From Haloglomus halophilum (GTDB taxonomy: Archaea > Halobacteriota > Halobacteria > Halobacteriales > Haloarculaceae): 64,000 nt of DNA. The notes beneath the pieces were generated by a model. It saw nothing but the letters and a program-made list of their open reading frames with translations, was not told the origin of the DNA and did no database searches. Positions within the stretch are counted from its first letter, which is position 1; each line of letters begins with the position of its first letter. Made by a program: the position numbers and the translations under genes. Shown here piece by piece: positions 592 through 34,464 of this stretch. Where the stretch lies: assembly GCF_024298885.1 (NCBI RefSeq), contig NZ_CP101166.1:2291149-2355148 (forward strand), written 5' to 3'.

Positions 592-2469
592 ATGACCGAC
601 AGCCCCGCGCCGGCCGCCAGGCTCCCTGCGGTCGGTGTCCTGCACGCACTGACGTTCGTCGTCGCGTTCTGTAGCTTCGCGTACGAGCTCGTCTACGCCG
701 AGTTGCTGACGGTCGTCTTCGGCGGTACCGTCACCCAGTACGGGCTCACGGTCGGGCTGTTCTTCTCGTCGCTGGGCATCGGCTCGTTCGCCTCGCGGGC
801 GCTCGACGACGACCGGCCGGCGAACTTCCTCCGCGTGGAGTTCCTGCTCGCGCTGGTCGGCCCCGCCGGCTTCCTGTTCGTCCTGCTCGTGACGGCGAGC
901 GAGCCGCCGGCGTACCTCCCGTACGGGGTCGTCGAGGTCGCCGCCCGGCTGCCCGTGGTGGCCGTCGGCCTGCTGTCCGGGTTCGAACTCCCGCTCCTGA
1001 CCGCGCTGGTCGAGCGCGAGGCCACCGACGGTCGCCGGGCGGGTCCGCTCGCCCGGGTTCGCCAGCGCCTCCGGGCGGGGACCTACCGCGCCGCGGGCCT
1101 GCTGTTCCACGTCTCCCGTGACGAGGAGGCCGTCGAAGGCTACCCGACGGTGCTGGGGATGGACTACCTCGGCGGGCTGGCCGGGGCGCTCCTGTACGTC
1201 TTCTGGCTGTATCCCCGGTACGGGCTGGTGGCGACGGTGTTCGTGCTGGGGTTGCTGAACGGGCTGGCCGCGCTGGCGTTCGTCGCCCGGTTCAGCACCT
1301 GGAGCCCGTTCGTGGGCGGGGACGGGACGGGCACGGGCGGGGACGGAACCGGCACGGCCGACGAGAGTGCCGCGGCCGACGGCGGGCACCGCCGGCTCCG
1401 CAGCGAGGAGGCCCGGGCGCTGATACTCGCCACGCTCCTGCTCACCGCGACCTACGCCGGGGTCGTCCTCGCCGCCGACCGCGTCGAGGGCGAGGTGGAG
1501 ACGTTCTACTTCGCGAACCGCATCGAGGCGGAGTACCCCGACGGCACCATCGACGCCACCGTCTCGGCGGTCGAGCGGACCCGGTACCAGCGTATCGTCC
1601 GCTACGAGCGGACCTGGACCGGCACCGGCCCGAACCCGTACTTCGCGGGGGCGAGCGAGGAGTGCCTGCGGCTCGGGACCGCCGTCCAGCTCTGTGAGTC
1701 GTGGGCGGACTCCTACCACCAGGGGCTCGTCGACGTGCCGATGACGATGTACGAGAACGGGAGCGAGACGGAGGTGCTGTTGCTCGGCGGCGGCGACTGG
1801 ATCGCTGCCGACCACCTGCGCGCGTACAACGTCACCGTCGACCACGTCGACCTCGACGGGGAGTTCATGCAGCGGACGAGGAATCGCGAGTTCTACGCCC
1901 GCTACCACGACGACGCCTACGAGTACGACCGGCTGAACACGACGGTCGGCGACGCGTGGCGCTACCTCGGCGAGACCGACGAGACGTACGACCTCATCCT
2001 GCTCGACCTCCCCGGCGCCGAGGACGACGACCTGCTGCGGCTCTACTCGACGGAGTTCTACGACCGCCTCCGGACCCACCTCGAACCGGACGGCGTCGTC
2101 GGGACGTGGGTCTACTCCCGTTACGACCAGGCCCGCCACCACGCCGCCTACGTCGAGACCGTACGGGCGGCCGGTTTCGACCGCCACGTCGCCTACAGCG
2201 CCTGGGAGGACCTCGACGCCGACGGCGAGACCGAGCGCGTCGAGCGGTTCTACCTGCTCTCGCCGGACGACGGCCCCGCGTTCGACCCCGCCGCGGGAGG
2301 GGCCTACGTCCGCCGGCACGCCGACCGCTACCGCGGCCTGCAGTGGGAGCCGACCCCGTCCTACCGCGGCGTCCGACCGAACCGCGTCCTCCACCCGAAC
2401 TACGACATCCTCATCCGGCCGAACCTGCGCAACGAGGACCGACACACCGGGAGGTGGTTGCCGTGGTGA
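592..2469 (+). CDS. membrane-anchored spermidine synthase-like aminopropyltransferase (N-terminal multi-TM domain plus C-terminal PABS domain)
   Basis: N-terminal hydrophobic helices, then LLLGGGDWIAADHL...VDLDGEF...DLILLDLPGAEDD, which is typical of spermidine synthase family AdoMet/aminopropyl binding. Confidence 0.7.
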   Translation: MTDSPAPAARLPAVGVLHALTFVVAFCSFAYELVYAELLTVVFGGTVTQYGLTVGLFFSSLGIGSFASRALDDDRPANFLRVEFLLALVGPAGFLFVLLVTASEPPAYLPYGVVEVAARLPVVAVGLLSGFELPLLTALVEREATDGRRAGPLARVRQRLRAGTYRAAGLLFHVSRDEEAVEGYPTVLGMDYLGGLAGALLYVFWLYPRYGLVATVFVLGLLNGLAALAFVARFSTWSPFVGGDGTGTGGDGTGTADESAAADGGHRRLRSEEARALILATLLLTATYAGVVLAADRVEGEVETFYFANRIEAEYPDGTIDATVSAVERTRYQRIVRYERTWTGTGPNPYFAGASEECLRLGTAVQLCESWADSYHQGLVDVPMTMYENGSETEVLLLGGGDWIAADHLRAYNVTVDHVDLDGEFMQRTRNREFYARYHDDAYEYDRLNTTVGDAWRYLGETDETYDLILLDLPGAEDDDLLRLYSTEFYDRLRTHLEPDGVVGTWVYSRYDQARHHAAYVETVRAAGFDRHVAYSAWEDLDADGETERVERFYLLSPDDGPAFDPAAGGAYVRRHADRYRGLQWEPTPSYRGVRPNRVLHPNYDILIRPNLRNEDRHTGRWLPW

Positions 2470-3047
2470 GCGACGACCTGGCGGGCGAGTCGCTCGGCGG
2501 CACCGACGACGCGCCGGACCACACGCTGCTCCGGCTGGTGCATCTCTCGACCGCGCCCGACCTCCAGGCGATGGACGTGAAACGGCGGGCCGAGGGCCGG
2601 CTGCTCGACGCCCGCGCCGACGTGCGCGTCATCGGGAGCTCGCACTGTCTGAGCCTGCCCGATGCGGGCTTCCACGAGCTCTGCTCCTGCCGGGCCCTTC
2701 CGGAGCTGGGCGTCCACCCCCCCGAGGAGGCGGCCGAACCCGATGGCGGCGTCCCGACCACCGCGGCGGGCGAGCAGGGCGCCGTGTCGCCCCGCCGGAT
2801 TCCGCTCTCGCCCGGCGTCGAGCGGACCCTGACGACCACGACGGGCGAGGTGCGCGCCGCCACGACGGTCGAGGGGCTCGGGCTGGACGCGTTCCCCGCC
2901 GACCGCGACTTCGATGTCCGTTACCGGTTCGGTCCGGATGCCGTCACCGCCATCACGCTCGACGGCGACCGGTTCGAGACCTACCACACCTACCCGGAGT
3001 TCGACCTCGCGCTCCGCTCGGAGACGGTGCTGACCCGGCTGAAGTGA
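2466..3047 (+). CDS. hypothetical protein, translationally coupled to the upstream gene (GTGA start/stop overlap)
   Basis: GTG at 2466 overlaps the TGA of the 592-2469 gene; 193-aa ORF, the tail of track ORF 1701-3047. Confidence 0.45.
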   Translation: MSDDLAGESLGGTDDAPDHTLLRLVHLSTAPDLQAMDVKRRAEGRLLDARADVRVIGSSHCLSLPDAGFHELCSCRALPELGVHPPEEAAEPDGGVPTTAAGEQGAVSPRRIPLSPGVERTLTTTTGEVRAATTVEGLGLDAFPADRDFDVRYRFGPDAVTAITLDGDRFETYHTYPEFDLALRSETVLTRLK

Positions 3048-3087
3048 CCGGGGGATTCACGGCGAACGACGCTGAACGACTCCAGAT

Positions 3088-4053
3088 ATGACCGACGAAC
3101 CCGCGTGGGCGGACGGCCCGGAGGCGACACACTACGACGGGGACGTGACGCTGACGGGTGAGCCCGGTCCCGTCGTCGTGGAGGACCCTGCGGACACGTT
3201 CGTCCGGGCCGACGCCGTGACCGGCGACCTGAAACTGGTCGACGCGGAGTACGTCTTCACCGACACGCCGGTGGAGGGGGGGACGACCGTCGCCCAGCCG
3301 GAACTCCGGGTCGCGGGCGACGTCGAGGACGGCTACGTCGACCGGCGCGGCGTGGAGGGTGACGCCGTCATCGCCGACGCCGAGGACGTGTTCGTCGCCG
3401 GCCGGGCCGCCGGAACGCTGGACGTGACGGGCGCCGAGAGCGTCTTCCGGGCGAGCGGTGACCCGCCGGACACGAGCGGCTTCGAGTCGTTCGTCGGCTG
3501 GCGGCGCTCCGGGAACGTCGAGAACCCCGACGGCATCGTACTGGTCGGCGCCCGCCACGACGTGACCGTCTCCGGTGTCACCGGCGACCTGACCGTCTAC
3601 GTCGTCGGGCACGACCACCGCGTTCGCGTGGACGGGCCACGCGGGACCGATGCCGACGTGACCGTCCGGTTCGTCGGGTACGAGAACACCGTCCGGCTGG
3701 GGCCGTATCTGACCGTCGCCGACACCGTCGAGGGCGGCTACGACAACGTCGTCGACGCCGACCCGTTCCCGGTGAACGACCTCATCGAGACCAGCCACGA
3801 CGAGGCCTACGGGGTCGCCTCCTTCGGCCGCACGAAGGTGACCTACCAGGCAGAGGCCACCGAGGACTGGTGTCCCAACTGCGGTGCCGAGGCCGACGCC
3901 ATCATCGAGCGCCACCAGGAGGAGGTGTTCCTCCTGTTCGGCATCCCGGTGAAGACCTACGACGAGGGCGGCGTCTCCTACGAGTGCGAGGAGTGTGCGG
4001 TCCGGAACGACACGGCCCTCTCGGAGTCCGAGCGGCGGTCGGTGCTGCGCTGA
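3088..4053 (+). CDS. hypothetical repeat protein (beta-strand-rich VTGD/VAGD repeats, bactofilin/beta-solenoid-like) with a C-terminal CxxC...CxxC zinc ribbon
   Basis: Repeated motifs VTGDLKLVDAEYVF / RVAGDVEDGYVD / VSGVTGDLTVYVVG; C-terminal CPNCGAE...YECEECA. Confidence 0.55.
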   Translation: MTDEPAWADGPEATHYDGDVTLTGEPGPVVVEDPADTFVRADAVTGDLKLVDAEYVFTDTPVEGGTTVAQPELRVAGDVEDGYVDRRGVEGDAVIADAEDVFVAGRAAGTLDVTGAESVFRASGDPPDTSGFESFVGWRRSGNVENPDGIVLVGARHDVTVSGVTGDLTVYVVGHDHRVRVDGPRGTDADVTVRFVGYENTVRLGPYLTVADTVEGGYDNVVDADPFPVNDLIETSHDEAYGVASFGRTKVTYQAEATEDWCPNCGAEADAIIERHQEEVFLLFGIPVKTYDEGGVSYECEECAVRNDTALSESERRSVLR

Positions 4054-4069
4054 CGCCCGGTGACGGTCG

Positions 4070-4142
4070 CGCCGCCCGGACGACGACCCGCGCCGCCTGG
4101 ACGACGACCCGCGCCGCCTGGACGACGACCCGCGCCGCCCGG
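4070..4142. repeat. perfect tandem repeat, 21-bp unit GACGACGACCCGCGCCGCCTG x3 plus a partial unit
   Basis: Direct reading of 4079-4141: three units, the third differing by one base. Intergenic, immediately 3' of the 3088-4053 gene. Confidence 0.9.
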
Positions 4143-4217
4143 CGCTCGCTCGCGTCCGCCCGCTCTCGTCGCGCTCGGCCGGACGAACGGGGTCGAATCG
4201 GGGGAACGTATTAGTCG

Positions 4218-6614
4218 GTGAACGCACCAGTCCGTGCCATGTCCGACGAACAGGAGGCAGGTCCCGACCCCGACGCTGGCGGGGGTGGGGGGACGACACC
4301 CGAGGACGGCGACGGCTCGGTCGCCGATACGACTGCCGAGCCCCGCACCGACCCCGGCGACCTGCCCACCTACGACGACGTAGCGACCGCGCGGGAGGTG
4401 CTCCGCGCGTCCCCGGCCGAGCGCGACGAGCGCGGCCTCACCGACGACGACGTGCGGGCAGCGTTCCGGACGGTCATCGACGAGGGTGACCGGGAGGAGA
4501 AGGACCTCTCGGGGGTCACGCTCCCGGCCCTGGACCTCGATTACGAGGTCGTCGACGGGACGAACAAGCACCCAGTCGACCTCCGGGGGGCGACCGTCGA
4601 GAAGCTCAGCGCCGAGCGGGGAACCATCCGGATTCCCCTCCACCTCGAGGACGCCACCGTCGGCGATATCCAGCTGGAGGGCGCGCACGTCACGCAGGAC
4701 CTCATCCTCGACGACGCGACCGTCACCGGCGACGTGGACACGTTCGAGGCCGTGTTCGACGGCGACCTGGAGTGTCGCGGGACCACGTTCGAGGGCGCGG
4801 TCGAACTGGACGAGGGCTCGTTCCACGACGACGTGAGCTTCGACGAGGCGACGTTCGAATCAGGGTTCGCCGCCCGGAACGCGGAGTTCTTCGGCGAGTC
4901 CCATCTGCTGGACGACAGCACCAGCTTCGACGAGGCGACGTTCGCCGGCGAGGCGGACCTCCGGCACACGGACTTCGGCTACGCCCGGTTCGAGGGCGTG
5001 GCCTTCGAGAGCGACGCGACGTTCGAGGAGGCCGACTTCCGGGGCGATGTCGAGTTCGATGGCGCGACGTTCGGTGACGAGGCGGACTTCGACGAGATAC
5101 GCTTCGGCGGGGACGCCTCCTTCGCCGGCGTGACGTTCGGCGGCCTGGCGCACTTCCGTGGCTCCGTCTTCGAGGGCGGGGCCCGAGTGCTGGAGGCCGA
5201 TGCCGCCTTCCAGGACGTCTCCTTCGAGGGCGAGGCGGACTTCACCCGCGCCGGCTTCCGGGTGGCGGACTTCACGGGCACGTCGTTCGCCGGGCCGGCG
5301 ACGTTCACGGAGCTCGCGGCGAGCGACGACCTGACCCTCGCCGACTGCGAGTTCGACGCTGAACTCCACGCCGAGGAGGCGGTTCTCGACGGAGACGTGG
5401 ATGCCACGGGCGCGGCGTTCGCTGCGCCGGTCGTCTTCGAGGAGGCGGAGTTCGGCGACGACGCCTCCTTCGCCGACTGCCGGTTCGATGCGCTGGCGGA
5501 TTTCGACGAGGTGCTGTTCGACGGCGACACCACCTTCGAGGCCGCGACGTTCGAGGACGAGGCCGACTTCCGTGGGACCGAGTTCCTGGGTGACGCCAAC
5601 CACCTCGCCGACGGCATCTCGTTCGCGGACTGTCGGTTCGAGGCGCACACGGACTTCGACGACGCGGCGTTCACCTCCGCGGACTTCGGCGGCGTCACCT
5701 TCGGCGCGCCCGCGGATTTCACGGGCGCGACCTTCGACGACCGGCTCGTCTGCCTGGCCAGCGCGACCACCGCCGCGACGTATCTCGACTTCACCGACGC
5801 GAAGATCAAGCGCGGCCGCATCGTCCAGCCCGAATCCAGCTGGATCCACTACGACATGACCCGTGCCAGCCTGGGTGACGTGGCGCTGGATGCCGAGCGC
5901 GAGTCGGACCGCCGGGAGCTGCTGGACTACTTCCGATTCTGCAACACGGAGTTCGACGAGTTCGACGGCCTGGCCTTCGACTTCTCGGACCACACCGACT
6001 ACCTCGACCGCAACGAGTGGGTGCTCCACGACTTCACCGAGAACGACGCCGCCGACCACGAGTTCGCCGTCGAGATGACGCCGGGGGTGACCGAGACGAC
6101 CTACCTGAAGGCGAAGAACGCCGCCTCCGCGGCGGGGGAGATGAAGGCCGCCGGCGAGTTCCGCGTGAAGCGGCAGGCGTTCTCGCGCCGGAAGCACATC
6201 GACATCGCCAAGGACCCGAGCGTGAGCCTCGGCGCCAGGCTCCAGAACGCCGCGAGAGCCGCCGAGAACGGATTCCTCGGGCTCACCTGCGGCCACGGGA
6301 TGCGCCTGATGCGCATCGCGCTGGTCTTCCTGCTCGCGCCGCTCCTGTTCGTCCCCTTCTACACGTTCGGCGGCCCGGCGTTCGCCACCACCACCGGCCA
6401 GCTGGACTCGCTCTCCGAACTGGCGACCCCTGCCGGGCAGGAGGTGCTGCTCGGCAACATTCACCTCAGCTACATCTCCTACACCACCATCGGCTACGGG
6501 AACGAGGCGCCGACCGCTATCGCCGGGCGGCTGATGGCCAGCAGCGAGGCCTTCCTCAGCACCGTGCTCGCGGCGCTGGTCGTCTATGCGCTGGTCAAGC
6601 GCTCGGAGCTGTAG
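4218..6614 (+). CDS. pentapeptide-repeat beta-helix protein fused to a C-terminal 2-TM potassium-channel pore domain (TTIGYGN selectivity filter)
   Basis: About 350 residues of xxFxx pentapeptide repeats (ATFES/GFAAR/ADFRG...). C-terminus: TM1 LMRIALVFLLAPLLFVPFY, pore helix plus filter HLSYISYTTIGYGNEAPTAIAGRL, TM2 FLSTVLAALVVYALV. Aligns with the KcsA-type TVGYGD...GR pattern. Confidence 0.75.
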   Translation: MNAPVRAMSDEQEAGPDPDAGGGGGTTPEDGDGSVADTTAEPRTDPGDLPTYDDVATAREVLRASPAERDERGLTDDDVRAAFRTVIDEGDREEKDLSGVTLPALDLDYEVVDGTNKHPVDLRGATVEKLSAERGTIRIPLHLEDATVGDIQLEGAHVTQDLILDDATVTGDVDTFEAVFDGDLECRGTTFEGAVELDEGSFHDDVSFDEATFESGFAARNAEFFGESHLLDDSTSFDEATFAGEADLRHTDFGYARFEGVAFESDATFEEADFRGDVEFDGATFGDEADFDEIRFGGDASFAGVTFGGLAHFRGSVFEGGARVLEADAAFQDVSFEGEADFTRAGFRVADFTGTSFAGPATFTELAASDDLTLADCEFDAELHAEEAVLDGDVDATGAAFAAPVVFEEAEFGDDASFADCRFDALADFDEVLFDGDTTFEAATFEDEADFRGTEFLGDANHLADGISFADCRFEAHTDFDDAAFTSADFGGVTFGAPADFTGATFDDRLVCLASATTAATYLDFTDAKIKRGRIVQPESSWIHYDMTRASLGDVALDAERESDRRELLDYFRFCNTEFDEFDGLAFDFSDHTDYLDRNEWVLHDFTENDAADHEFAVEMTPGVTETTYLKAKNAASAAGEMKAAGEFRVKRQAFSRRKHIDIAKDPSVSLGARLQNAARAAENGFLGLTCGHGMRLMRIALVFLLAPLLFVPFYTFGGPAFATTTGQLDSLSELATPAGQEVLLGNIHLSYISYTTIGYGNEAPTAIAGRLMASSEAFLSTVLAALVVYALVKRSEL

Positions 6615-6897
6615 CGGCTCCAGCGGCTCGGGAGCGATGACGTCGAGGCCTCCCTCGTTGACGTCTACCCAGCCATCCAGCGCGCTGGTGACTCCCTCGT
6701 CCGGTGCCGGGACTCGGAGGCGGCCCTCGACTGCCCGAGCTTGGAGGACGAGCGGCGACGCCGGCGCGGCGTTGCGAGAGGCGTAGCCCCAGCGTTCGGC
6801 CCCGCTCCGCGGCACCCGCTCGCGAACCCGGTCCGATTTCGTGCTCGATGTTCCCCGAGTCGGAAGGACTTTCCCGCTCGCACGCCCCACTCCGTCC

Positions 6898-7074
6898 ATG
6901 AGCGAGTATACGGTCAGCGGGCGCTTCCAGGCCCGCGACGGCTGGCAGGAGTTCGAGACGAACGTCGAGGCGCCCAACGAGGACGTCGCCCGCGAGCGGA
7001 CGTACGCGAACGTCGGCTCCCGACACGGCAAGAAGCGCACGCAGGTGGAGCTCCAGGAGGTGCGTGCCGCATGA
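6898..7074 (+). CDS. rplX: 50S ribosomal protein LX (L18Ae/L20A family)
   Basis: 58-aa MSEYTVSGRFQARDGWQEFETNVEAPNEDVARERTYANVGSRHGKKRTQVELQEV, upstream of pfdA-ftsY as in other archaea. Internal ATG of track ORF 6841-7074. Confidence 0.7.
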   Translation: MSEYTVSGRFQARDGWQEFETNVEAPNEDVARERTYANVGSRHGKKRTQVELQEVRAA

Positions 7075-7547
7075 GCCTCGGTGGTGGCGGCGGCGGCGGC
7101 ATGGACCAGCTGCAGCAGCAACTCCAGGCGCTCGAACAGGAGAAGGAGGCCGTTCAGGAGGAGATCGAGGGTGTGCAGGCCGACAAGAGCGACATCGACG
7201 AGGCCATCAACGCGCTCGAGGAGCTCGAGACGAACGACACCGTGAAGGTGCCGCTCGGCGGCGACGCGTACGTCAGCGCCGAGCTCGGGAGCATCGAGGA
7301 GATCGTCGTCTCCATCGGCGGCGGCTTCGCCGCCGAGCGCGATCAGGAGGGTGCCATCGACACGCTCGAGAGCAAGAAGGACGTGCTCGACGAGCGCATC
7401 GCCGAGCTGGAGGCCGAGATCGACGAGATCGAGGAGCAGACCGAGCAGGTCGAGCAGAAGGCCCAGCAGGCACAGCAGCAGCAGATGCAGCAGATGATGC
7501 AGCAGCAACAGCAGATGGAGGGCGGCGAGGGCGACGAGGACGAGTGA
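7071..7547 (+). CDS. pfdA: prefoldin alpha subunit, with poly-Gly N-terminal and poly-Gln acidic C-terminal low-complexity tails
   Basis: Coiled-coil / beta-hairpin / coiled-coil pattern (LQALEQEKEAVQEEIEGVQ...VKVPLGGDAYVSAEL...LDERIAELEAEIDEIEEQ). ATGA overlap with rplX stop. Confidence 0.8.
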   Translation: MSLGGGGGGGMDQLQQQLQALEQEKEAVQEEIEGVQADKSDIDEAINALEELETNDTVKVPLGGDAYVSAELGSIEEIVVSIGGGFAAERDQEGAIDTLESKKDVLDERIAELEAEIDEIEEQTEQVEQKAQQAQQQQMQQMMQQQQQMEGGEGDEDE

Positions 7548-7551
7548 CGCG

Positions 7552-8817
7552 ATGTTCGACGGACTGAAGGAGAAACTCGGGAAGTTCCGCGACGACGCTG
7601 CCGAGGAGGCCGTCGAGGTCGAGGAGACCGACGAGGAGTCGGAAGCGGCGGCCGAGCCGGACGCGGCCGAGCCGGACGCGGCCGGGTCCGACGACACTCC
7701 CGAGTCCACCGAAGCCGAAACGGCGACCGACGCCGAGCCGGAGGCCGGCGCGGCCCCCGACGACGCCGCTGCGGACGAGAACGAGGGGCCCGACGCCGAC
7801 GCCGACGCCGAGGTCGCCGAGGCCGCTCCGGACGGCCAGTCCGAGTCCGAGCGCGAGAGCAACGTCCCCGACGCCCTCTCGCGCCGGACCGAGGAGGTGA
7901 CCGCCGGCTCCGCCGAGGAGACCGGCGGCGAGAGCCTCTTCGGCTCCGTCAAGCGCGCGGCGACGGGGAAGGCGCTCATCAAGCGCGAGGAGCTCCAGCG
8001 CCCGCTGGAGGAGCTGGAGATGGCGCTCATCCAGGGTGACGTGGAGATGAGCGTCGCCCAGGCCATCACCGACCGCATCGAGGAGAAGCTGGTCGGGCAG
8101 ACCCGGGCGCAGGTCCAGACCGGCGAGATCGTCGTTCAGCGGGCCATCGGCGACGCGCTCCGGGACGTCATCAGCGTCGGCCAGTTCGACTTCGACCAGC
8201 GCATCCAGGAGGCCGAGAAGCCCGTCACCATCATCTTCACCGGCGTCAACGGCGTCGGGAAGACCACCACCATCGCGAAGCTCGCGCGGCGGTTCCAGAA
8301 CCAGGGACTGACGCCCGTCATCGCGAACGGCGACACCTACCGCGCCGGCGCGAACGAGCAGATCGAGGAGCACGCCGAGGCGCTCGACGCGAAGATCATC
8401 ACCCACCAGCAGGGCGGTGACCCGGCGGCGGTCATCTACGACGCCGTCGAGTACGCCGAGGCCAACGACGCCGACGTGGTGCTGGGCGACACTGCGGGTC
8501 GGCTCCACACCTCGAACGACCTGATGGCCCAGCTGGAGAAGATCGACCGCGTCGTCGACCCAGACATGACCATCTTCGTCGACGAGGCCGTCGCCGGCCA
8601 GGACGCGACCCAGCGCGCGAAACAGTTCAACGACGCTGCCGAGATCGACGGCGTCGTGCTGACGAAGGCCGACGCCGACTCGCAGGGCGGGGCGGCCGTC
8701 TCCATCGCCCACGTCACGGGCAAGCCCATCCTCTTCCTCGGGGTCGGACAGGGGTACGAGGACCTCGAACGGTTCGACCCGGACGTCATCGTCGACCGCA
8801 TCGTCGGCGAGGAGTGA
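7552..8817 (+). CDS. ftsY: signal recognition particle receptor FtsY (acidic N-terminal domain plus NG domain)
   Basis: IIFTGVNGVGKTTTIAKLA (G1), DTAGRLH (G3), TKADADSQGG (G4). Confidence 0.9.
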   Translation: MFDGLKEKLGKFRDDAAEEAVEVEETDEESEAAAEPDAAEPDAAGSDDTPESTEAETATDAEPEAGAAPDDAAADENEGPDADADAEVAEAAPDGQSESERESNVPDALSRRTEEVTAGSAEETGGESLFGSVKRAATGKALIKREELQRPLEELEMALIQGDVEMSVAQAITDRIEEKLVGQTRAQVQTGEIVVQRAIGDALRDVISVGQFDFDQRIQEAEKPVTIIFTGVNGVGKTTTIAKLARRFQNQGLTPVIANGDTYRAGANEQIEEHAEALDAKIITHQQGGDPAAVIYDAVEYAEANDADVVLGDTAGRLHTSNDLMAQLEKIDRVVDPDMTIFVDEAVAGQDATQRAKQFNDAAEIDGVVLTKADADSQGGAAVSIAHVTGKPILFLGVGQGYEDLERFDPDVIVDRIVGEE

Positions 8818-9213: not shown

Positions 9214-10218
9214 TTACAATCCGTGCTCCGCGCGCACCTCGTCCAGCCGCTCGCGCGCCCGGTCGTTGACCGGCTCCTCGTTCTCGACGGGGTCGCGGCC
9301 GTGCATCGTCTCGTGGACCATCGCGATGGAGTCCGCGAGCGCGTCGAGGCTGTAGCCGCCCTCCAGCACGAACGCGAGCGCGGCGTCGAGGTCGTCACAG
9401 AGGTCGTCGAGCCGGCGGGTCATCGCGCCGTACCCCTCCGTTGAGACACGCATCCGGGAGATGGGGTCGTGCTCGTGGGCGTCGAAGCCCGCGCTGACGA
9501 TGAGGAGGTCCGGGTCGTACCGTTCGAGCGCGGGCCGGAGCGCCTCGTCGATTGCGGCGAGGTACTCGGCGTCGCCACAGCCGCCCCGATAGGGCACGTT
9601 CAGGATGGAGCCCTCGCCCTCGCCGCGGCCGGGTTCGTCGACGTGGCCGGTGCCGGGGAAGAGGCCGCGCTCGTGGATGGAGGCGTAGAAGACATCGCCG
9701 CGCTCGTAGAACATCTTCTGCGTGCCGTTGCCGTGGTGGACATCCCAGTCGAAGACGGCGACGCGGTCCACGTCGTCGCGCTGGAGGGCGTCGGTGGCCG
9801 CGACGCCGGCGTTGCCGAGGAAGCAGAAGCCCATCGCCTCGTCCGGTTCGGCGTGGTGGCCGGGCGGCCGGCCGATTGCGAAGGGCGTATCGTGGCCCTG
9901 CTGGCCGTCGAGGGCCGCGTTGGCCGCCCAGACGGAGAGCCCGGCGCTGGCGCGGGCGGCCTCCCAGGTGGCACCCACTGCCACGGTGTCGGCGTCCCAG
10001 GTGCCACCGCCGTCGGCGCAGAACTGCTCGACCTCGTCGAGGTAGTCCGGGTCGTGGACGCGTTCGAGCGCCTCGCGGGTGGCCAGCGAGCCCTCCTCGT
10101 ACTCGACGCCGTGGAGGCGCGAGAGTCGCCGGCGGATGGCCCGGAGCCGGTCCGACGACTCCGGGTGCCGGGCGCCGGTCTCGTGTCGTAGACAGGCGTC
10201 GCGGTAGCCGAATCGCAT
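9214..10218 (-). CDS. hdaI: class II histone deacetylase / acetoin utilisation AcuC family protein
   Basis: HDAC catalytic motifs FCFLGNAG...DWDVHHGNGTQ...SAGFDAH...EGGY; start ATG located at 10218 (MRFGYRD). Confidence 0.85.
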   Translation of the reverse strand: MRFGYRDACLRHETGARHPESSDRLRAIRRRLSRLHGVEYEEGSLATREALERVHDPDYLDEVEQFCADGGGTWDADTVAVGATWEAARASAGLSVWAANAALDGQQGHDTPFAIGRPPGHHAEPDEAMGFCFLGNAGVAATDALQRDDVDRVAVFDWDVHHGNGTQKMFYERGDVFYASIHERGLFPGTGHVDEPGRGEGEGSILNVPYRGGCGDAEYLAAIDEALRPALERYDPDLLIVSAGFDAHEHDPISRMRVSTEGYGAMTRRLDDLCDDLDAALAFVLEGGYSLDALADSIAMVHETMHGRDPVENEEPVNDRARERLDEVRAEHGL

Positions 10219-10673
10219 CAGAAGTACTCTGCGAGTCGGAAGTAGACCGCCACATCCTCCTCCTTGATGGTGCGGCGGTCGGCGTGTTCGGCGAGGACGG
10301 CCGCGGCGGCCGCCACGCGGTCGGCGTACCGTTCGAGGACGGTCGCGAGCGCGACCCGGGCGTCCATCGCGACCCGATAGGAGTCGTCGATGTCGAGCCG
10401 GGCGATGCGGTCGACCGGCGCGATGGGCAGTTCCAGCCCTTCCGGGTCGCCGTTCGCGGGTACGCCCCCCTCGGCGAGGTCGGCGAAGTCCTCGGCCATC
10501 AGGGTCTTGCGACCGTCCTCGGTGGCGCGTTCGGCGGCCTCGACCGCCAGTGCGGCCCCACGGGACTGGATACGGCGCGCGAGCTCCTCGGCCGCCTCTG
10601 CGCTCACGCGGAGGTCGCCCGCGTTCCGCCGGATGACGGTATCGACGGGGGCGAACGGTAGCTCGACACTCAT
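10218..10673 (-). CDS. hpyA: archaeal histone, tandem (doublet) histone-fold protein
   Basis: MSVELPFAPVDTVIRRNAGDLRVSAEAAEELARRIQ, then a second fold LELPIAPVDRIARLDIDDSYRVAMDARVALATVLERYAD; its stop TGA overlaps the hdaI ATG (TGATG). Confidence 0.8.
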   Translation of the reverse strand: MSVELPFAPVDTVIRRNAGDLRVSAEAAEELARRIQSRGAALAVEAAERATEDGRKTLMAEDFADLAEGGVPANGDPEGLELPIAPVDRIARLDIDDSYRVAMDARVALATVLERYADRVAAAAAVLAEHADRRTIKEEDVAVYFRLAEYF

Positions 10674-10810
10674 ACCGCGTATCCGGTCCGTTCGACACTT
10701 CAACCCGTCGGTCGTGGGGTGTTCACAGGCCGCCCCCGTGACGACGGCGCTCCTCCCGGTTCCGGCCGGATGCCGGGACTGTTATCGGCACCCCCTGCGT
10801 CGGTGCCACC

Positions 10811-31302: not shown

Positions 31303-31378
31303 TACTGGGGCGTAGACGGGGGAGCGACAAGAGCGCGTCGGGGCCAACCTTCAAGCCCCGTTGCGCCGAAGGCGCCGT

Positions 31379-32623
31379 ATGGCCCTCCCGCTCTATCCAG
31401 CACAGGCCGGCGTCGTCGGCGGTATCGTCACGCTGGTCATCCTGGCCATCGCCATCGTCGCCGTCTACAAGTCCGTCGTCATCGTGCAGGCGTACGAGCG
31501 GAAGGTGTGGACGCTGTTCGGGCAGTACCGCGGTATCAAGGAGCCCGGCATCTCGTTCATCCCGCCGTTCGTCTCGGCCACCTACGCGTTCGACATGCGA
31601 ACCCAGACGCTCGACGTGCCCCGGCAGGAGGCCATCACGCGCGACAACTCGCCCGTGACGGCCGACGCCGTCGTCTACATCAAGGTGATGGACGCCAAGA
31701 AGGCGTTCCTCGAGGTCGACAACTACAAACGCGCCGTTTCGAACCTCGCCCAGACCACGCTCCGGGCGGTGCTGGGCGACATGGAGCTGGACGACACGCT
31801 GAACAAGCGCGGCGAGATCAACGCCCGCATCCGCAAGGAACTCGACGAACCCACCGACGAGTGGGGGGTCCGCGTCGAGTCCGTCGAGGTCCGCGAGGTC
31901 AACCCCTCGCAGGACGTCCAGCAGGCGATGGAGCAGCAGACCTCCGCCGAGCGCCGCCGCCGTGCCATGATTCTCGAAGCGCAGGGTGAGCGCCGCTCCG
32001 CCGTCGAGAAGGCCGAGGGTGACAAGCAGTCCGACATCATCCGCGCACAGGGGGAGAAGCAGTCACAGATCCTCGAAGCGCAGGGTGACGCCATCTCGAC
32101 CGTCCTCCGCGCCAAATCCGCCGAGTCGATGGGCGAGCGTGCGGTCATCGAGAAGGGGATGGAGACGCTCGAATCCATCGGGCAGAACGAGTCCACGACG
32201 TTCGTGCTCCCGCAGGAACTCACCTCACTCGTCGGGCGCTACGGCAAGCACCTCACCGGCAGCGACGTGCAGGGTGACGGCCAGGAGCTGGAGGCGCTCG
32301 ACTTCGACGACGAGACCCGTGAACTGCTCGGCCTCGACGATATCGAGGAGATACTCGGGCAGATCGAGCAGGAGACGGAGATGGACGTCGAGCAGATGGA
32401 GGCCGAGGCCCAGGCGATCAAGGAGGGACAGGACGCGGCCGACATCCGCGACCCCGACGAGGTCATCGAGGAGATGGACCAGGAGATGGGCGCGGGCGCC
32501 GACATCGATGTCGGCGCGGGCGACAACACCGGCGCGGCGACCCCGGAGCGCGGCAGTGATTCGGATGCCGACGGTGACGCCGGCGCGGACGGCGATGGCG
32601 AGCGCGAACCCGAGACGGAGTGA
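31379..32623 (+). CDS. SPFH/band-7 (stomatin/HflK-like) membrane protein with long acidic coiled-coil tail
   Basis: N-terminal TM then YERKVWTLFGQYRGIKEPGISFIPPF...TRDNSPVTADAVVYIKV (SPFH core). Confidence 0.85.
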   Translation: MALPLYPAQAGVVGGIVTLVILAIAIVAVYKSVVIVQAYERKVWTLFGQYRGIKEPGISFIPPFVSATYAFDMRTQTLDVPRQEAITRDNSPVTADAVVYIKVMDAKKAFLEVDNYKRAVSNLAQTTLRAVLGDMELDDTLNKRGEINARIRKELDEPTDEWGVRVESVEVREVNPSQDVQQAMEQQTSAERRRRAMILEAQGERRSAVEKAEGDKQSDIIRAQGEKQSQILEAQGDAISTVLRAKSAESMGERAVIEKGMETLESIGQNESTTFVLPQELTSLVGRYGKHLTGSDVQGDGQELEALDFDDETRELLGLDDIEEILGQIEQETEMDVEQMEAEAQAIKEGQDAADIRDPDEVIEEMDQEMGAGADIDVGAGDNTGAATPERGSDSDADGDAGADGDGEREPETE

Positions 32624-32634
32624 TTCCGCCGCGG

Positions 32635-34464
32635 CTACCGCTGGACCGACCGGGTCAGCGCGAAGACGAACAGGGCGATGAGGAAGCCACCGAGGAACCC
32701 TTCTGACGAGGCGAGCAGTCTGACGGGAAGCGTCGCGCCACGCGGGACGCCGCCGAAGATGAGGCTCACGAACGACTGGAGGCTGAACGTCAGGTTCTCG
32801 AGCGCGACGGTCGCGAGCGACGCGTCCGGTCGCGTCACGGCTCCCAGTCCGGCGAACACCGCCCCGTACCCGGCCACGAGCAGCAGGGAGACCGCGACCG
32901 TTCTGAGCGGCCGCTCGCCGTAGCCACAGCTCAGTCCGAACAGCGCGTTGGTGGCCCAGCCGCCGGCCGCCCGCAGCCGGTCGGTGGCTGTCTCGCCCGT
33001 CCCGACAGCATCCCGTTTGAGCCGGCGGCGGTAGCGCATCTCCCGGACGAAGAACTGCGAGGCCGCGGTCCGGTCGCCGGTGGCATCGGCCCCACGACGG
33101 GCCTTGAGGTACGTCGACTCCAGAACCTTCGGCGCGAGGTCGGCATCGACGGCCCGGCCGCGCCCGGGGTCGTGAACCCGGTGGAGGTTCCACGTCTCGC
33201 CGAGTGCGCCACGGTGGTCCTCGAACGCGAACCCGTCGAACGAGGTCCGGGCCACCCGGAGGTGGTCGAACGGCACCACCCCCGAGTCGCCACCGACGAG
33301 GGTGACATCCGCGATGGCTCCGTCCGTGCAGTCGAAGACGACCCGTTCGTCGTCGGGCAGGTGGAGTTTGCCGTCGGCGACGGTGGCGTCCGTACAGTCG
33401 ACGACGACGCGCTCGTCGGCCGGACGGTCCGGTCCAGGGACGAGCCCCGAGCAGTCGAGGCCACCGTCGATGCTGGCGCCCCGGAGTCCGAGGTCACCGA
33501 CGAGCGTCGCCCCGGCGAACTCCACGCCCGACCGGAACGTGGCGTTCCTGAACTGGAGGTCCGCTCGCGGCCCGGACCGGTGCCGTCGTCCGCCGTGGAT
33601 TCCGACGAACCAGGTCCGGTCGGCGAACGTGGCGTCGAGGAAGTCCGTGCCACCCTCGAAGCGACAGTCGGTGAAGTGTGCCTCCCCGTCGAAGTGGGCG
33701 CCACCGAATCCCGCGTCCCCCTCGAAGCGGGTGTGGCGGAACCACGCGTCGCCGCCGAACTCGACGCGGCGGAACCCGGCGGCCCCGCGGCAGCGAGCCC
33801 CCGCGAATCGGACCGTGCCATCGAAGGCCGCCCCCTTCGCACGGACCGAACCGAACGAACAGGCGTCGAGCCGGAGCTCCGTCCCGAACCGGGCGTCCGA
33901 GAGGTCGGCCCGTTCCGAGACGGTACAGAACCGCAGGTCGACGGGGCGGTTGTACGCCGGGCGATGGACGTAGCCGGCGAGGTCGAGCGTCTCGAACGAG
34001 GCCCCGACGACGACGTGACGCGCCGGGTCGTCGGCCGACAGCGCCTCGTGGAGCGCCTCCCGGACTGCCGCGGGCGATGCGTCGCCGTGGAAGACACAGC
34101 GGTCGCTCCCGTCGGTCGCGGGATGTGGACACTCGGTCGGCAGGTCCTCGTCCGTCCGGTCGTTGCTCCCGCGGCGGACGAGCAGGTCGACGACGTCGTC
34201 CACCGTCCGTCCGAGGACCTCCGCGTCCGCGTCCGCGACGACGCTGGCGGCGCCCTGCGCGAGCAGGTCATCGTCGACCGGACGGTCTGCCGGGAGCGCC
34301 TCCCGGAGCCGTCGTCGCCCCACCTCGACCCCGTTCCCCTCGCGGTCCGCCCCGTTGAACCCCTCCGGAGCCGTGCAGAACGCCCGGACCGTCACCAGCT
34401 CGTCCGCGAGCGCGACCAGGTGGTCGCGCCAGTCCTCGTCGGCGAAGTACGTGCAGCTGTCCAT
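32635..34464 (-). CDS. paralog of the 4218-6614 protein: pentapeptide-repeat domain plus C-terminal 2-TM pore-loop domain with a degenerate filter
   Basis: Shares STYLKA(K/R), FGL(S/T)CG(Y/H)G and ASSE(G/A)FL with the paralog, but has SLQSFVSLIFGGVP where the paralog has SYISYTTIGYGNEAP. Confidence 0.7.
   Translation of the reverse strand: MDSCTYFADEDWRDHLVALADELVTVRAFCTAPEGFNGADREGNGVEVGRRRLREALPADRPVDDDLLAQGAASVVADADAEVLGRTVDDVVDLLVRRGSNDRTDEDLPTECPHPATDGSDRCVFHGDASPAAVREALHEALSADDPARHVVVGASFETLDLAGYVHRPAYNRPVDLRFCTVSERADLSDARFGTELRLDACSFGSVRAKGAAFDGTVRFAGARCRGAAGFRRVEFGGDAWFRHTRFEGDAGFGGAHFDGEAHFTDCRFEGGTDFLDATFADRTWFVGIHGGRRHRSGPRADLQFRNATFRSGVEFAGATLVGDLGLRGASIDGGLDCSGLVPGPDRPADERVVVDCTDATVADGKLHLPDDERVVFDCTDGAIADVTLVGGDSGVVPFDHLRVARTSFDGFAFEDHRGALGETWNLHRVHDPGRGRAVDADLAPKVLESTYLKARRGADATGDRTAASQFFVREMRYRRRLKRDAVGTGETATDRLRAAGGWATNALFGLSCGYGERPLRTVAVSLLLVAGYGAVFAGLGAVTRPDASLATVALENLTFSLQSFVSLIFGGVPRGATLPVRLLASSEGFLGGFLIALFVFALTRSVQR

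Follow-up and report, generated by a model that had tools for sequence, protein, structure and literature searches.

Introduction

Bacterial operons that encode a seven-transmembrane (7TM) spermidine-synthase-like protein (7TM-SpeE) together with DUF350, a lipoprotein, and DUF4178 were described by Ravi et al. (2024, mSystems, PMC11237479). Some variants also contain DUF4247 and DUF2617, the latter being called a beta-sandwich enzyme of unknown type. Members include Rv2597-Rv2601 of Mycobacterium tuberculosis (DUF2617, DUF4247, DUF350, and SpeE) and a CesT/PspA-linked version in Shewanella, and polyamine-type operons containing a K+ channel were also described (PMC11237479). Here, we analyze a 64,000-nucleotide (nt) stretch of Haloglomus halophilum contig NZ_CP101166.1 (positions 2,291,149 to 2,355,148; hereafter, the window), which begins with genes for DUF8229, a 7TM-SpeE-like protein, DUF2617, DUF8108, and a fusion of pentapeptide repeats with a K+ channel. 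We conclude that these five genes form one conserved haloarchaeal module.

The 7TM-SpeE ortholog of Haloferax volcanii, HVO_B0357, has been studied before. In this literature, seven transmembrane (TM) helices and nonconserved putrescine-binding residues (Prunetti et al. 2016, PMC5178350; PMC3017900) and a GGGDW motif (Gomez et al. 2018, PMC6267482) are reported. Haloarchaea are further stated there to lack a canonical S-adenosylmethionine (AdoMet) decarboxylase (AdoMetDC), and, therefore, the source of the aminopropyl donor and the role of membrane SpeE were explicitly raised as a question by Prunetti et al. (PMC5178350).

Five genes are kept together across haloarchaea

To assess conservation of the neighborhood, genomes were searched with DUF8108 as the anchor and 10-kilobase (kb) flanks, the other proteins being located by tblastn. 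The search returned 27 loci, of which 2 were cut by contig ends, leaving 25 that could be assessed. All five genes were found together in 23 of these, from Halorussus, Haloferax, Halogranum, Halopelagius, Natribaculum, Haloterrigena, Natrinema, Salinigranum, Halohasta, Halosimplex, and Halorhabdus; when loci from plasmids, metagenomes, and further genomes are counted along with Haloglomus itself, the total reaches 15 genera. The initial annotation of the window had proposed the synteny check and named nonconservation of the neighborhood as the outcome that would overturn it; nonconservation is refuted by these counts. The same cluster is present on annotated megaplasmids, namely, H. volcanii pHV3, H. 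mediterranei pHME322, Haloarcula marismortui pHMA288, and a Salinibaculum plasmid.

The set has been retained through rearrangements. DUF8108 is transcribed divergently from the other four genes in Halosimplex and Halorhabdus, the channel gene lies ahead of DUF8108 in Halohasta, and it is inverted in two further loci (L041 and L047). In Salinibaculum, the channel gene is located upstream, beside a gene for a MarR-type regulator. Halorientalis, which was searched from the synthase side, has all five genes, with DUF8108 truncated and the channel gene inverted. The sequence flanking the module differs from locus to locus. Since the gene set is conserved across genera despite rearrangement, the region represents a functional module and not a chance neighborhood.

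The spacing of the first four genes is operon-like. The 7TM-SpeE and DUF2617 genes are separated by at most 6 nt or overlap in all haloarchaeal loci, and the DUF2617 and DUF8108 genes frequently share a 4-nt overlap; the spacer between DUF8108 and the channel gene is ~75 to 220 nt across loci and 164 nt in the window. In a haloarchaeal metagenome contig recovered from eight samples, the two enzyme-like genes are fused in frame (protein P0062, 765 amino acids [aa]; L041, 786 to 3083), and the fusion sits within the same five-gene cluster, in which the channel gene is inverted.

The lack of a phenotype upon deletion of HVO_B0357, as reported in PMC5178350 and PMC3017900, would be expected if the genes were merely neighbors, the SpeE-like protein being a decayed relic and the small open reading frames (ORFs) hitchhikers. 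This explanation is highly improbable and is effectively refuted by synteny and motif conservation: The five-gene set is maintained at 40 to 57% protein identity across the 15 genera with catalytic motifs invariant, it survives rearrangements, two of its genes have been fused, and its core pair is common to bacteria and archaea.

In the window, the module begins with the 3′ part of the DUF8229 gene (positions 1 to 536, + strand), whose start lies before the window. The ORFs of the initial annotation were all found at their positions and as described, except for the perfection of a tandem repeat (see below) and the missed upstream gene. It spoke of four co-directional genes ahead of the channel gene but named only three genes and the repeat; the fourth, DUF8229, was overlooked. 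The DNA is ~70% GC, and it matches Haloglomus halophilum proteins and metagenome contigs from that species with full or nearly full identity.

Directly downstream of the module is a run of conserved archaeal housekeeping genes encoding ribosomal protein L18a/LX, prefoldin alpha, and FtsY. On the opposite strand, a histone-deacetylase-family gene adjoins a histone-fold gene; the housekeeping and histone-related genes together occupy positions 6841 to 8817 and 9214 to 10703. In the 27 genome loci, the module is accompanied by none of them. Elsewhere, genes for MarR/HTH-type regulators, which are candidate dedicated regulators, lie beside the module in Salinibaculum (L045, 1 to 2686) and in the contig with the fusion (L041, 7171 to 7977). 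An extra 1.5 to 2.7 kb separates DUF8108 from the channel gene in a Salinigranum metagenome-assembled genome (MAG; L026, 10924 to 12422) and in plasmid pHFX2 of Haloferax sp. S1W (L031, 10936 to 13602); it may be an insertion element.

The membrane protein retains residues for binding of decarboxylated AdoMet

The second gene of the module (positions 592 to 2469, + strand) encodes a 7TM-anchored aminopropyltransferase-like protein of 625 aa, the ortholog of HVO_B0357. It had been annotated as a polytopic membrane protein with a C-terminal PABS domain, in agreement with ~7 hydrophobic segments within its N-terminal 300 residues and a match of residues 373 to 505 to the spermine/spermidine synthase domain PF01564 (48.9 bits versus a cutoff of 22.9). 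The score against NCBIfam PRK03612, 215.5 bits, is under the equivalog cutoff of 472; the PRK03612-type architecture is shared, with bacterial members aligning over residues 14 to 613. The best relatives in the Protein Data Bank (PDB) are Thermus thermophilus SpeE, 1UIR, and also 3ANX (E = 2.5e-15).

GGGD402, D420, D454, D472, P474-G-A, and D479 are invariant in 26 orthologs, and GGGD402, D420, D454, and D472 align with GGGE, VDID, DDA, and IIDL of T. thermophilus SpeE. In PABS enzymes, the acidic residue of the GGGD/E motif selects decarboxylated AdoMet (dcAdoMet), other residues of this set bind ribose and adenine, and an Asp is catalytic. Of the two Asp residues in the D-x-x-D putrescine site, the second is missing: The segment reads D472-L-P-G-A, with a gap at this position in the HMMER alignment to 1UIR. 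As judged from these alignments, the synthase retains the dcAdoMet-binding and catalytic Asp residues and is without the classical putrescine site. The pHV3 ortholog, which is ~55% identical and has the 7TM N terminus and the same five-gene context, carries GGGDW. Because the dcAdoMet-selecting Asp is kept and haloarchaea are, according to PMC5178350, without canonical AdoMetDC, a donor enzyme would be needed.

DUF2617 resembles AdoMet decarboxylase

The third gene (positions 2466 to 3047, + strand) starts with a GTG that overlaps the TGA of the synthase-like gene at positions 2466 to 2469. The initial annotation had recorded this GTGA overlap correctly, and the coupling is confirmed; it missed the nature of the 193-aa ORF, which is the most informative point. 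PF10936.16 is the precomputed domain for the protein and all 77 homologs. PF10936 is matched by 19 of 21 orthologs and by 69 of 72 wider family members, while the window protein scores 20.9 bits in the local search against a cutoff of 22.3. DUF2617, to which the protein belongs, has two near-universal motifs, G-x-S-H and H-T-Y-P-E. An exhaustive profile search over 1.84 billion proteins recovered no more than 321 cluster representatives, so that the family is small.

The best PDB match of a haloarchaeal DUF2617 profile (A3) was the AdoMetDC of Aquifex, aligned in the HT[WY]PE register with F-x-P-x-A-x-T...E-T-Y-H-T-Y-P-E of the profile on F-Q-P-H-G-A-T...S-I-H-T-W-P-E. With a broader family profile (A4), Aquifex AdoMetDC ranked third among PDB matches in the same register. 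RIG-I C-terminal domains came slightly above AdoMetDC for A4 via the segment I-E-E-S-H-Y (E = 0.08); we take this match as due to chance because the fold differs and no member recurs. When 72 diverse DUF2617 members were scanned, 12 matched the class 1 AdoMetDC family PF02675 at E ≤ 10 (best E = 1.9e-4); zf-U11-48K was matched by three members (E ≥ 0.18), and each remaining family was matched by one. The same segment was placed on PF02675 positions 38 to 70 by 7 of 10 members tested.

Eight genuine class 1 SpeD proteins were used as a reference in hhalign comparisons: that of Thermotoga maritima, checked against 1TLU and 3IWB, and those encoded by seven plasmid speD genes. DUF2617 reached a probability of 85.9% (P = 5e-6) as a whole and of 91.7% (P = 8e-7) with its C-terminal half, which also aligns with the S55...H68...E72 segment of the T. 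maritima protein. The N-terminal half aligns weakly (P ~0.02) and places S59-H60 on S63-H64, E71 on D79, and C75 on C83, so that I-I-G-x-S59-H60 is set on I-S-E-S63-H64, which contains the cleavage/pyruvoyl serine, in the expected register. The E62|S63 cleavage site of T. maritima was confirmed from chains A and B of PDB entry 3iwb. Alignment to the single human AdoMetDC sequence was not significant (E = 0.12), and its register alone is informative: F155, T161, H174, and E178 are placed on F223, S229, H243, and E247. In the human enzyme, F223 stacks on adenine, S229 and H243 are processing or catalytic residues, and E247 binds ribose.

Conservation is 90% or higher at G57, S59, H60, E71, F155, T161, H174, Y176, and P177, in a family whose mean column identity is 15%. 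The predicted fold, a compact single-chain beta-sandwich, is the double beta-sheet fold of AdoMetDC. Ser and Cys in the N-terminal half and Ser/Thr, His, and Glu in the C-terminal half follow the same split as in the eukaryotic single-chain enzyme. An internal duplication was not detected by sequence when the N- and C-terminal halves were compared by hhalign (P = 0.56). We conclude that DUF2617 is a miniaturized homolog of AdoMetDC, related to it by remote homology and not by membership in a curated family. This assignment appears to be new relative to the literature searched, structure-based domain databases lying outside that search.

In DUF2617, the AdoMetDC fold might also serve another role. 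As in neofunctionalized SpeD homologs, the protein could decarboxylate ornithine, arginine, or lysine and thereby supply the acceptor instead of the donor, or, in the manner of the trypanosome prozyme and the spermine synthase N-domain, it could be a noncatalytic regulatory or scaffold subunit. We consider such another role doubtful, if by no means negligible. S59, H60, E71, and H174 are near-invariant in spite of the low mean column identity (as is P177, which is nonpolar), and near-invariance of polar residues favors catalysis over scaffolding. Moreover, in the alignment to the human enzyme, F155 falls on the adenine-stacking Phe and E178 on the ribose-binding Glu, the partner protein keeps its dcAdoMet-selecting Asp, and the host is without another dcAdoMet source.

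The enzyme pair is also found in bacterial operons

All bacterial contigs of sufficient length place DUF2617 in an operon with a full-length 7TM-SpeE homolog. The order is SpeE followed by DUF2617, with a gap of 2 to 31 nt, in three contexts (L033-L035, L037, and L039/L040). In one operon, from a bacterial MAG (L036, 6167 to 14062; CAZJZH010000002.1), DUF2617 precedes SpeE, and the genes encode TelA, DUF4178, DUF2617, a 544-aa protein, DUF350, 7TM-SpeE, and a K+ channel. This channel is GluR0-like (SBP_bac_3 and Ion_trans_2 domains), has a TVGYG filter, and starts 13 nt after SpeE. In the L036 operon, the enzyme pair has thus come together with a K+ channel independently.

The K+ channel fusion and its upstream region

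The last gene of the module (positions 4218 to 6614, + strand) encodes a protein of 798 aa if translated from GTG 4218; an alternative start is ATG 4239. Tandem repeats of the A(D/N)LXX type are matched above threshold by the pentapeptide-repeat family PF13576 (Pentapeptide_3) over seven stretches of the protein (E = 7.7e-48, 160.9 bits), and Ion_trans_2 (PF07885) matches at E = 6.3e-6 and 26.4 bits against a cutoff of 22.5. The two C-terminal TM segments (residues 693 to 722 and 771 to 796) flank a TIGYG filter at residues 757 to 761 (nt 6486 to 6500), and T-x-G-Y-G is invariant in 25 orthologs, identifying the protein as a K+ channel. A search of the PDB by sequence found no solved homolog of the fusion. 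Most orthologs (e.g., L009 and L029) begin with a conserved segment, C-R-Y-T-F-D-P-S, which the Haloglomus protein is without and which in Halohasta has the form C-A-Y-E-F-D-P ... C-P-H. The segment possibly serves as a small element for recognition or for binding of a metal.

Synthase and channel genes are strongly co-conserved, the cofactor-binding and catalytic residues of the synthase are conserved as well, a K+ channel follows the homologous SpeE in the bacterial operon L036, and K+ channels occur in other polyamine-type operons (PMC11237479). These observations could be accounted for if, as the initial annotation had suggested, the membrane enzyme made spermidine or a similar polyamine that directly blocks or rectifies the adjacent channel, as in Kir channels. 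We regard direct block as unlikely. The pore is a minimal two-TM (2TM) one, in which no Kir-type cytoplasmic polyamine site is recognizable by sequence, and two genomes have no channel beside the enzymes. In addition, no spermidine was detected in H. volcanii according to PMC5178350.

Ion-channel effectors are common in defense systems, the module is often found on megaplasmids and in differing genomic contexts, and the repeat region weakly matches the NCBIfam model of the Hailong effector HalA (E = 0.0025, far under the cutoff). The module might be an accessory defense or abortive-infection system, with the channel as a membrane-depolarizing effector and the other proteins as sensors; its patchy occurrence on plasmids would agree with such a role. 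This is quite improbable. With PADLOC, the sole match among the module proteins was a weak methyltransferase-fold match given by the synthase domain (mad2, 21.7 bits), the other four proteins giving no defense match, and the module has no nuclease, ATPase, or nucleotide-signal enzyme. Bacterial operons with the enzyme pair are of the envelope-stress type (with DUF350, DUF4178, and TelA, or else with PspA), and in the window, the module adjoins housekeeping genes.

The spacer upstream of the channel gene contains a tandem repeat (positions 4068 to 4139) that had been reported as a perfect array of three 21-base pair (bp) copies. Tandem Repeats Finder gives a period of 21, 3.4 copies, and 98% matches: Copy 1 has a C where copies 2 and 3 have a T, and a 12-nt partial fourth copy follows. 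The window has three full copies, and four nearly identical contigs of the same species (L001-L004; L001, 10981 to 11022) have two; the repeat is absent from the equivalent spacer of other genera. Since its copy number is strain-variable and it is absent elsewhere, it is a variable-number tandem repeat without a conserved role, i.e., a neutral minisatellite usable as a strain marker.

Promoter and terminator signals were judged by AT-richness and counts of T-runs, a sigma-70 scanner being inapplicable to archaea. A candidate TATA-like box, GTATTAGT (positions 4208 to 4215, + strand), lies ~27 nt upstream of ATG 4239 and is among the very few AT-rich hexamers in 7.2 kb of this GC-rich DNA. Clear TATA-like boxes of the AATATTTATG or TATATATT type are found at the same distance in Halosimplex and Halorhabdus orthologs. 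No T-runs of four or more were found in the 7.2 kb. The channel gene thus probably has its own promoter and possibly gives a leaderless transcript; ATG 4239, rather than GTG 4218, may be its true start. Because of this probable promoter, the channel gene is possibly a separate transcription unit within the module.

A second pentapeptide-repeat protein of 609 aa is encoded at positions 32635 to 34464 of the window (− strand) and is 31% identical to residues 371 to 794 of the channel fusion. It has a Cys/His-rich segment at the N terminus and a 2TM region at the C terminus, with LIFGGVP instead of TIGYG at the filter position. Its gene is convergent with a Band-7/SPFH gene (positions 31361 to 32623, + strand), a family that the PSP literature ties to the same kind of membrane-stress operons.

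The DUF8108 and DUF8229 proteins

The DUF8108 protein (321 aa; positions 3088 to 4053, + strand) is a cytoplasmic protein whose AlphaFold2 model (pLDDT 90.6) shows a right-handed beta-solenoid (residues 14 to 224), a helix, and a beta-rich zinc-ribbon domain (residues 246 to 303). The initial annotation had described VTGD/VAGD beta-strand repeats ending in a CxxC-CxxC zinc ribbon. This motif recurs only in loose form; the solenoid itself is real, and the ribbon is borne out by C262-x-x-C265 ... C300-x-x-C303, whose four cysteines are invariant in 20 homologs. The suggested likeness to bactofilin or halofilin was not supported: The protein gave no bactofilin-like match, by DUF583 or by structure. 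No sequence-family match to DUF4097, DUF2807, or DUF2154 was found either.

The full DUF8229 gene was taken from the identical contig L001. It starts with MQRREFLRSAAVVGGVAALGGC and encodes 230 aa (PF26682). The translation contains an RR motif and a lipobox (MQRREFLRS...LGGC), with a TAT_signal match (E = 6e-4) just under the cutoff, and the protein is predicted to be a Tat-exported lipoprotein. In almost every related locus, this gene precedes that of the synthase. Neither DUF8229 nor DUF8108 has a Pfam relationship to DUF4247, DUF4178, or DUF350, and "analogs" of the bacterial operon partners is a name that they would deserve by position only. Our literature search found no relevant work on DUF8108, DUF8229, or archaeal pentapeptide-repeat K+ channels.

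Discussion

The explanation that we consider best, with a probability of about 0.5, is that of a five-gene module centered on the pair of DUF2617 and the aminopropyltransferase, in which the accessory genes are linked to K+ flux or envelope stress. In one chain, DUF2617 would reproduce both halves of a class 1 AdoMetDC dimer, with the Ser-His cleavage/pyruvoyl motif and a Cys contributed by the N-terminal half and Thr/Ser and the His-Thr-Tyr-Pro-Glu motif by the C-terminal half. Translated together with the 7TM aminopropyltransferase, or fused to it in one variant, DUF2617 would make the aminopropyl donor, dcAdoMet, locally, and the membrane enzyme would pass the aminopropyl group to an acceptor amine on the inner side of the membrane. 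The extracellular Tat lipoprotein, the cytoplasmic beta-solenoid/zinc-ribbon protein, and the K+-selective channel with its large cytoplasmic pentapeptide-repeat domain would be co-evolving accessory or effector parts, so that the module may tie a local chemistry of polycations or aminopropyl groups to the flux of K+ or to envelope stress. Our data show that the module is conserved, which domains it encodes, and that DUF2617 is related to AdoMetDC; an activity as decarboxylase, the chemistry between donor and acceptor, and a functional connection with the channel are inferred. The probable function of the system is in cation or envelope homeostasis, and under standard laboratory conditions it is probably silent.

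A more specific version can be put forward tentatively. DUF2617 may be the missing AdoMetDC of haloarchaea and of the many bacteria with 7TM-SpeE/DUF2617 pairs, an independently miniaturized, pseudo-dimeric single-chain pyruvoyl enzyme of ~155 residues. With the membrane enzyme, it would make up a self-contained machine that aminopropylates an acceptor other than putrescine at the membrane, the product in haloarchaea controlling the dedicated pentapeptide-repeat K+ channel.

Several observations weigh against a module organized around an AdoMetDC-type enzyme. PMC5178350 and PMC3017900 report no phenotype for the HVO_B0357 deletion and no detected spermidine in H. volcanii, and the module is either silent, or conditional, or making a product not yet sought. 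All matches of DUF2617 to PF02675 are under the gathering score (best, 17.8 bits versus 25), and homology of the N-terminal half, and with it the assignment of Ser59 as the pyruvoyl residue, depends on the fold and a weak alignment (P ~0.02); decarboxylation and self-cleavage by DUF2617 are putative. Two short bacterial contigs carry DUF2617 without an adjacent SpeE, Haloferax elongans and Halocatena keep the enzyme genes without a nearby channel, and a promoter of its own is probable for the channel gene.

The role of membrane "spermidine synthases" in organisms without spermidine and AdoMetDC can now be tested directly in a genetically tractable organism, through HVO_B0357 and its four neighbors on H. 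volcanii pHV3, and so can the nature of DUF2617 in bacterial 7TM-SpeE operons, including M. tuberculosis Rv2597-Rv2601. If DUF2617 is indeed of the AdoMetDC type, genome-based inference of polyamine and aminopropyl metabolism has overlooked a donor-supplying family, and the AdoMetDC fold has a third, very compact architecture. This chemistry is paired with K+ channels tightly and repeatedly, in archaea as well as in at least one bacterial case, which opens a way to study the coupling of polyamines and K+ channels in prokaryotes; if the proposal is correct, polycation chemistry would be tied to the homeostasis of K+ in cells with molar concentrations of it. Whatever the mechanism, the five-gene module supplies a context for DUF8108 and DUF8229.

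Known AdoMetDCs differ from DUF2617 in size and in detail. Class 1 SpeD/SpeH enzymes (PF02675; T. maritima 1TLU) consist of two chains of 120 to 130 residues, and the class 2 human enzyme (1MSV) has 334 residues, whereas DUF2617 has ~155 ordered residues and is almost helix-free; the residue that precedes the Ser is not Glu in DUF2617. A study by Li et al. (2019, Biochem J) reportedly deals with polyamine-independent AdoMetDC and membrane SpdSyn-like proteins. The DUF8108 protein differs from other right-handed beta-solenoids, namely, Toastrack/putative adhesin beta-helix proteins (DUF4097, DUF2807), CARP/TBCC, CsgA, and SufB/D, by its C-terminal zinc ribbon. The literature on HVO_B0357 (PMC5178350, PMC6267482) treats the gene alone, and in its accessible portions, the neighbors and a donor-supplying partner are not discussed.

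The closest described systems remain the bacterial operons of Ravi et al. The haloarchaeal module is without their DUF350, DUF4178, DUF4247, TelA, and PspA/CesT; instead, it carries DUF8229, DUF8108, and the pentapeptide-repeat K+ channel fusion, none of which matches the bacterial families. Both have a full-length 7TM and PABS homolog (22 to 31% identity over the whole length), an adjacent DUF2617, a partner that is secreted or a lipoprotein, and a cytoplasmic partner rich in beta structure, and the bacterial operons occasionally have a K+ channel. Since DUF2617 adjoins 7TM-SpeE in bacteria too, the module is a haloarchaeal variant of the described bacterial operon type.

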